Shown here: piece after piece, positions 10,262-10,948 of the stretch
How positions within the stretch are numbered: the stretch's first letter is position 1
Layout: every line of letters starts with the position of its first letter
IMG/VR virus record: IMGVR_UViG_2909257012_000004
Strand: one strand, 5' to 3'
DNA from: a virus
Lineage: Duplodnaviria > Heunggongvirae > Uroviricota > Caudoviricetes
DNA: 54,350 nucleotides
Position numbers and translations under genes: made by a program
The notes under the pieces: model-generated
Seen by the model: the letters and a program-made list of their open reading frames with translations, nothing else
Database searches by the model: none
Told to the model about the DNA's origin: nothing

Positions 10262-10948
10262 ATGACCCCAATAAAAATATTTATGACTATTGCTGATTTC
10301 AAACGGCCTAAATTGGAGCTCCCAAACGGGGCAAACAAACTACTACTGCACTCTTGCTGTGCTCCATGTTCCGGTGAAGTGATGGAGGCGCTTCAGGCCT
10401 CGGGAATCGACTACACCATCTTTTTCTACAACCCGAACATTCATCCTCAGAAAGAGTATTTAATTCGTAAGGATGAAAATATTCGCTTTGCTGAACAACA
10501 CGGCGTGCCGTTTATCGATGCTGATTACGACACCGACAACTGGTTTGAACGTGCCAAAGGAATGGAATGGGAGCCTGAGAGGGGGATCCGTTGTACCATG
10601 TGTTTTGACATGCGTTTTGAGCGGACAGCGTTGTACGCTGCTGAAAATGGTTTCAGTGTGATCAGCAGTTCACTGGGCATTTCACGCTGGAAAAATATGC
10701 AGCAGGTTAACGAGTGTGGGCGGCGAGCTGTTGCGCATTATCCGGGTATGGTGTACTGGGATTATAACTGGCGCAAGCAGGGCGGCTCGTCCCGTATGAT
10801 TGAAATCAGCAAGCGCGAAAAATTCTATCAGCAGGAATATTGTGGCTGTGTGTATTCTCTGCGCGATACCAATCTACACCGCAAATCTCAGGGACGCCCT
10901 CTTATCAAAATTGGCCAACTCCACTACGGAAAAGAAGAGAAGGAGTGA
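10262..10948 (+). CDS. queH: Epoxyqueuosine reductase QueH-like (DUF208)
   Basis: Conserved Cys motifs [22 protein letters not shown] and YCGCVYS typical of QueH. Confidence 0.7.

Follow-up and report, generated by a model that had tools for sequence, protein, structure and literature searches.

The queH locus

The window, by which we mean the whole stretch of DNA that was analyzed, comprises 54,350 nucleotides of a tailed-phage genome (Caudoviricetes; IMG/VR record IMGVR_UViG_2909257012_000004). The list of open reading frames contains an uninterrupted plus-strand ORF of 228 amino acids at 10262-10948, which a preliminary description made from the letters alone had taken for a prophage-borne epoxyqueuosine reductase of the QueH type. 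The features of the locus are as follows:

Positions 9668 to 10108, plus strand: DUF977 (Ren-like) gene, the left neighbor of queH in all contexts inspected
Positions 10233 to 10952, plus strand: queH cassette of ~720 bp, consisting of the coding sequence with 50 bp ahead of it and 4 bp beyond the stop codon
Positions 10240 to 10248, plus strand: extended -10 promoter-like element TGcTACACT, its hexamer TACACT occupying 10243-10248, with 34 nt separating the element from ATG 10283
Positions 10283 to 10948, plus strand: queH coding sequence, 221 amino acids and a stop codon, identified by PF02677, PDB, and Foldseek, with the start assigned by orthologues and PGAP
Positions 11016 to 11341, plus strand: hok/sok type I toxin-antitoxin, the right neighbor, identified by Rfam sok RF01794 and a mok/hok ORF

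Over positions 1-25000 the window matches prophages of ST131-type and other E. coli at 99.8-100% identity, and a near-identical prophage in NZ_CP135458.1 (99.8% over the same interval) adjoins trpA and a truncated ompW-family gene. The annotated genes of the NZ_CP135458.1 element run from an early and regulatory group (integrase, excisionase, exonuclease, ydfD, dicB, a LexA-family repressor, Cro, and YdaT) through further early genes (a replication-initiator-like HTH protein, an ATP-binding protein, DUF1627, and DUF977) to queH, hokD, DUF968, RusA, the Q antiterminator, a DNA methyltransferase, and two tRNAs, followed by the late genes for lysis, head, and tail. With replication genes on one side and the Q antiterminator on the other, queH occupies the early-right ('nin-like') part of a Rac/Qin-type lambdoid prophage of ST131-type E. 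coli, just where the preliminary description had placed it.

The DUF977 gene precedes queH in five contexts (O104:H4, ST131-type, E. coli B, O7:H15, and phage HannyBb), and the queH locus of E. albertii has the same neighbors as the phage contexts. On the right, the Rfam sok model scores 120.5 bits at 11016-11191 and overlaps a mok/hok ORF at 11129-11341, annotated as hokD in identical prophages; hok/sok is not part of queH function. Past hok/sok there is a terminator-like hairpin at 11410-11427. In an Rfam scan of the whole window the matches were sok, DicF, STnc100, and two tRNAs, and at queH there was neither a riboswitch nor any other RNA element.

Several other features of the window deserve mention in their own right. 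The DicF antisense sRNA (4537-4588, minus strand, 76.7 bits) lies beside dicB/ydfD, and an STnc100 sRNA match (16661-16850, plus strand, 132.4 bits) lies downstream of two tRNA genes at 15712-15787 and 15888-15964. The second of these is tRNA-Arg(TCT); the first is tRNA-Met(CAT) according to ARAGORN, and PGAP calls the identical gene tRNA-Ile with a lysidine-type CAT anticodon. At 43641-46516, a 152-residue ORF (43641-44099) stands just before two ORFs (44214-45755 and 45767-46516) that have the same lengths as istA and istB of the IS21-like element ISEc12, and in the near-identical prophage ISEc12 splits an Ail/Lom-family outer-membrane gene. Finally, a 222-residue ORF at 52387-53055 on the minus strand, which may be another cargo gene, matches in length a class I SAM-dependent methyltransferase annotated in NZ_CP135458.1, where it lies at the end of the prophage amid tail-fibre and invertase remnants.

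Start codon and annotation

The reading frame and strand of the ORF stand as first described, but the start does not: the upstream ATG at 10262 is not conserved and adds 7 nonconserved codons, whereas every chromosomal orthologue begins at ATG 10283, which is Met8 of the long ORF and is also the start used by RefSeq/PGAP, where 10283-10948 encodes WP_000150294.1, "epoxyqueuosine reductase QueH". No Shine-Dalgarno sequence is visible ahead of ATG 10283 by inspection of the sequence. Identification of the gene adds nothing new, both the family and the exact protein having already been named in RefSeq in ~1000 complete genomes. The phage resources read differently. PHROG 3217 (PHROGs v4) is the QueH family and is labelled 'unknown function'; its 188-position profile covers the long ORF only from residue 41 onward, past the CCAPC motif, which hints that in many phage annotations QueH has been given a truncated start. 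The record for phage HannyBb annotates its own QueH copy as a hypothetical protein. Our literature search found no paper on prophage- or phage-borne QueH, and the phage-borne location of queH seems to have gone unremarked.

Identity of the protein

The identity of the enzyme as QueH is well supported. Specifically, i) the protein matches the Pfam family PF02677 (QueH, DUF208) over profile positions 1-174 of 175 with an E value of 1.1e-65 and a score of 221.5 bits, the curated cut-off being 23.5 bits; ii) the sole solved structures matched in a PDB sequence search are entries for T. maritima QueH (7lc5, E 7.8e-22); iii) when an AlphaFold2 model is compared with the PDB by Foldseek, the best 5 matches are again T. 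maritima QueH (E 4e-9 to 2e-8, probability 1.00, target-normalised TM 0.70-0.73), and the next are PP-loop proteins of the TtuA/LarE type at E 3e-5 or weaker, ~4 orders of magnitude below QueH; and iv) all 7 metal-ligand positions are retained in an alignment to T. maritima QueH, C32, C33, and C36 of the CCAPC motif, C111 and C114 of CxxC, and C194 and C196 of CGC (in the numbering of the 228-residue ORF) corresponding to T. maritima C9, C10, D13, C87, C90, C169, and C171, respectively. The preliminary description had recognized these Cys motifs of QueH (DUF208) by eye; all three are present, and the full-length profile match, far over threshold, agrees with both fold and ligands.

The model was built from 15 homologues and is of moderate confidence (mean pLDDT 71, pTM 0.72), with low confidence around the Cys loops; its predicted fold is that of QueH, with an adenine-nucleotide alpha-hydrolase-like core. 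In the 15-sequence alignment, six of the ligand Cys residues never vary, and C194 differs in one row alone, that of the frameshifted P0055. Cys36 at the position of T. maritima Asp13 is no oddity, as the CCAPC form is common to S. aureus-like, Listeria-like, and gut-metagenome homologues and is the commoner form among the homologues aligned. The PDB also holds C9S and D13N mutants of T. maritima QueH, so the depositors had targeted those positions, and Li et al. in 2021 reportedly found that the CCAP(C/D), CxxC, and CGC residues bind a [4Fe-4S] cluster and an adjacent iron. A scan with NCBIfam release 20 gave no match to the window protein, an uninformative result since PGAP names the protein QueH anyway.

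Published work on the family, and the 88-92% identity that links the protein to chromosomal orthologues, lead us to expect cobalamin-free reduction of epoxyqueuosine-tRNA to queuosine-tRNA; the protein is very likely a functional QueH reductase acting on host tRNA.

Cassette boundaries and promoter-like element

Three independent comparisons place the limits of the inserted DNA at 10233/4 and 10950/2. Specifically, i) nucleotide homology between the window and the Scandinavium chromosome spans 10233-10952; ii) homology with a divergent prophage allele from O7:H15 spans 10234-10952, the flanks being unrelated on both sides; and iii) in phage Tritos, which has no queH, homology to the window stops at 10200 and resumes at 10951, the same slot (457-2500 of the Tritos sequence) holding a 444-residue hypothetical gene on the opposite strand. 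These comparisons thus define one cassette of ~720 bp, the unit that is shared with chromosomal queH and has moved between phage backbones. The interval from the DUF977 gene to hok/sok (10201-10950) is a cargo hotspot. With its sharp limits, and with another gene in its place in Tritos, queH is a discrete insert without which related phages exist, as expected of a 'moron'; it is found in 994 genomes, compared with about 4375 for the adjoining hok/sok segment. HannyBb and E. coli B have an additional ~370-bp insert between queH and sok.

When the upstream sequences of the window, HannyBb, Scandinavium, Kluyvera, and two Enterobacter are aligned, GCTACA(A/C)T is invariant and is preceded by T in 5 of the 6, the remainder being poorly conserved. 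Of 80 genomic loci, 13 have this element or one like it 39-49 nt upstream, as do 6 of the 7 nearest relatives; Symbiopectobacterium and Acerihabitans are among those with a similar TGCTA(C/T/A)A(A/C/T)T at that spacing. A generic sigma-70 promoter scan did not call the element at 10240-10248, and its hit counts were at shuffle level; a terminator scan found none between queH and hok and predicted none ahead of queH. From this conservation we infer that the element may be the native queH promoter, co-captured with the gene; an extended -10 element of this kind would let queH be expressed from a repressed prophage.

Origin, distribution, and selection

The closest chromosomal relatives of the window protein are enterobacterial, with amino acid identities of 92% in Scandinavium, 91% in Kluyvera, 88-90% in Enterobacter, 87% in Symbiopectobacterium, and about 86% in Erwinia, in a family so strongly conserved that identity is 75-80% even to Alpha- and Betaproteobacteria. 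The queH genes of Scandinavium and Enterobacter quasihormaechei lie among SDR, metallo-beta-lactamase, DeoR, and glycosyl-hydrolase genes, and orthologues at 79-86% adjoin purL/glrK (Erwinia), tmcA/purC (Providencia), or benE (Photorhabdus); among the 80 genomic loci listed, phage neighbors occur only at the E. albertii copy, which is 100% identical. We suggest that queH was captured, together with its own promoter, from an Enterobacteriaceae chromosome by a Rac/Qin-like lambdoid phage lineage, a step in an explanation that we regard as likely when taken as a whole.

Within E. coli, queH (10233-10948) is present in 994 of 5426 complete genomes, near full length in 984 of the 994, and annotated as QueH in every genome row shown; 82% of the genomes lack it. 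The copies fall into three bands of nucleotide identity to the window:

At least 99% identity: 706 genomes
95-99% identity: 181 genomes
90-95% identity: 107 genomes

In every context inspected, queH lies in the early region of a lambdoid prophage or phage, after the DUF977 gene, and it is indeed accessory, as had been supposed from the window alone. Carriers include ST131, O104:H4, and O157:H7 strains as well as E. coli B. In ATCC 11303, which we take to be E. coli B, the queH allele is 93.9% identical (5049-5714 of the compared locus) and is carried by what looks like a degraded Qin-like prophage, with truncated neighboring genes and an IS3 nearby; K-12 presumably lacks queH.

Comparison of the window allele with that of HannyBb gives a dN/dS ratio of 0.046 (dS 0.29), and comparison with Scandinavium gives 0.036; the low ratio between phage-borne alleles points to strong purifying selection while on phages. 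Damaged copies are rare, being represented by the frameshifted P0055 and a truncated copy in genome H132.

HannyBb, an isolated temperate phage, carries queH and is the only credible phage carrier in a tblastn search of 50,697 phage records. As evidence of phage carriage we discounted four other phage records inspected, which are flagged UNVERIFIED or UNVERIFIED_ORG, two 330-380-kb 'Acinetobacter phage' assemblies matching QueH, and the remaining phage-record matches, which are mostly unannotated metagenomic 'Bacteriophage sp.' fragments. An IMG/VR scan found 191 viral contigs with queH, of which the best 80 are all 100% identical E. coli prophage copies and are therefore uninformative on independent captures.

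Possible roles of a prophage queH

Epoxyqueuosine (oQ), the substrate of QueH, is made on tRNA by QueA. E. coli cannot make cobalamin de novo, and its tRNA is said to carry oQ if the cells are grown without B12 (Frey et al. in 1988). The final reduction to queuosine (Q) was attributed in the preliminary description to the unrelated QueG, and queG is found in 5425 of the 5426 complete E. coli genomes; given this near-universality, queH always supplements queG rather than standing in for it. QueG is a cobalamin-dependent enzyme with two [4Fe-4S] clusters (PMC4646009), QueH has been described as a cobalamin-independent replacement (PMC5615194), and most cobamide-using bacteria are unable to make cobamides (PMC11841063).

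The explanation we favor, and consider likely, is that a housekeeping queH captured with its own promoter now serves as cargo, a 'moron', reducing oQ to Q in host tRNA without cobalamin. On this account, i) a lambdoid phage lineage would have captured chromosomal queH and its promoter, the gene becoming cargo; ii) the QueH-type iron-sulfur enzyme would reduce oQ at position 34 of host tRNA-Asp, -Asn, -His, and -Tyr to Q; iii) the phage QueH would in this way perform the same last step as the chromosomal QueG, but without cobalamin; and iv) the lysogen would complete Q when B12 is scarce or B12 uptake has been lost. Since QueG needs cobalamin, which E. coli cannot make, and QueH is independent of it, a lysogen could finish Q without B12. 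A change in the queuosine status of host tRNA, which had been raised as one of two possible functions, is the best-supported role.

Whether cobalamin independence is the benefit for which queH has been selected is, in our judgment, an even call at best. We are not aware that having oQ rather than Q gives E. coli any strong growth phenotype. This, taken with the unchanged growth of a queG deletion in one study (PMC11841063), makes the selective benefit uncertain, and the fact that four-fifths of E. coli do without queH argues against a large one.

Use of the gene during lytic growth strikes us as unlikely. Expression of queH from the early-right promoter would bring host tRNAs with GUN anticodons fully to Q, or would alter their susceptibility to anticodon nucleases, and such a use would accord with the co-orientation of queH with the early-right operon upstream of the Q antiterminator with no predicted terminator ahead, with the two tRNA genes of the same prophage, which would make translation-related cargo a theme, and with the retention of queH by an isolated phage (HannyBb). 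The cassette brought its own conserved promoter-like element, however, queH is intact in the apparently degraded prophage of E. coli B, fitting selection at the level of the host, and nothing suggests that phage yield or sensitivity to nucleases depends on whether tRNA carries oQ or Q. We wish to stress that the lytic and lysogenic readings are not mutually exclusive and may coexist.

Less probable still is that queH is neutral cargo with no current function, spread by hitch-hiking on a successful prophage lineage. Such a history could be read into the presence of QueG in the host, the lack of queH in most E. coli, and the existence of the frameshifted and truncated copies, but it is at odds with the dN/dS of 0.046 between phage-borne alleles at a dS of 0.29, with the conservation of all ligand cysteines, with the near full length of 984 of 994 copies over three identity bands, and with the retention of the cassette on different phage backbones.

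We reject as highly improbable a role for queH in a phage 7-deazaguanine DNA-modification or anti-restriction pathway, a deazaguanine-related function having been the second possibility raised in the preliminary description: QueH does belong to the 7-deazaguanine pathway and phages do use other enzymes of that pathway on their DNA (PMC6884629), but neither a partner transglycosylase (DpdA/TGT-like) nor QueC, QueD, QueE, or FolE is annotated anywhere across the near-identical NZ_CP135458.1 prophage, homologues of QueA, QueG, and QueH were found in none of the viruses analyzed in a 2019 survey (PMC6884629), the substrate oQ is formed on tRNA, 88-92% identity to housekeeping enzymes leaves little room for a new substrate, and a PADLOC scan of QueH and both neighbors gave no defence-system match.

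Significance

If the captured gene does complete Q in lysogens, then prophage queH would be a lysogenic-conversion trait by which about 18% of E. coli complete Q independently of the cobalamin supply, a proposal that we advance tentatively and would rate as somewhat short of even. Strains with queH would then carry Q where K-12 carries oQ without B12, with possible effects on the decoding of NAU/NAC codons, or on fitness under limitation of B12 or of its uptake through BtuB. If the enzyme works, common laboratory and clinical E. coli lineages would differ in oQ versus Q in B12-free media, and B-lineage laboratory strains may differ from K-12 in the Q step; such a strain difference would bear on tRNA-modification measurements and on competition for B12 in the gut.

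The value of these observations is modest, and lies in context rather than identification. They place a late queuosine-pathway gene on temperate phages, as against the 2019 virus survey in which QueA, QueG, and QueH were absent (PMC6884629), and would provide a clean example of how a housekeeping gene was picked up together with its promoter, as a unit of ~720 bp, and afterwards exchanged among phage backbones.

Comparison with known systems

T. maritima QueH (PDB 7LC5, 7LC7, and 9DEU) has the same fold as the window protein and six aligned Cys positions, but the two are only 30-32% identical, Asp13 of the former is replaced by Cys36 in the latter, and the window protein has ~19 additional N-terminal and ~25 additional C-terminal residues. 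E. coli QueG (b4166) carries out the same oQ-to-Q step on the same tRNAs (PMC9508795), yet it differs from QueH in having an unrelated fold and a different cofactor, and it is a core gene product whereas queH is accessory. The Dpd-type phage clusters (DpdA, FolE, QueC, QueD, and QueE) described by Hutinet et al. in 2019 are likewise phage-borne genes of the 7-deazaguanine pathway (PMC6884629); these clusters make preQ0-derived bases and insert them into DNA, in contrast to the window, which has a lone late-pathway tRNA enzyme and no transglycosylase partner.

The chromosomal QueH proteins of Enterobacterales share with the window protein their length, start, and conserved residues, and their genes share the TGCTACA(A/C)T element about 34 nt upstream; they differ in occupying ordinary gene surroundings, whereas queH of the window is found in the early region of a lambdoid prophage and varies in presence among E. 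coli. We know of no report that places the queH of S. aureus on a mobile element. That species, a precedent for a cell with two such reductases, encodes both QueG and QueH, which has been read as cover for differing cofactor availability (PMC13443448), whereas in E. coli the second reductase arrives on a prophage.
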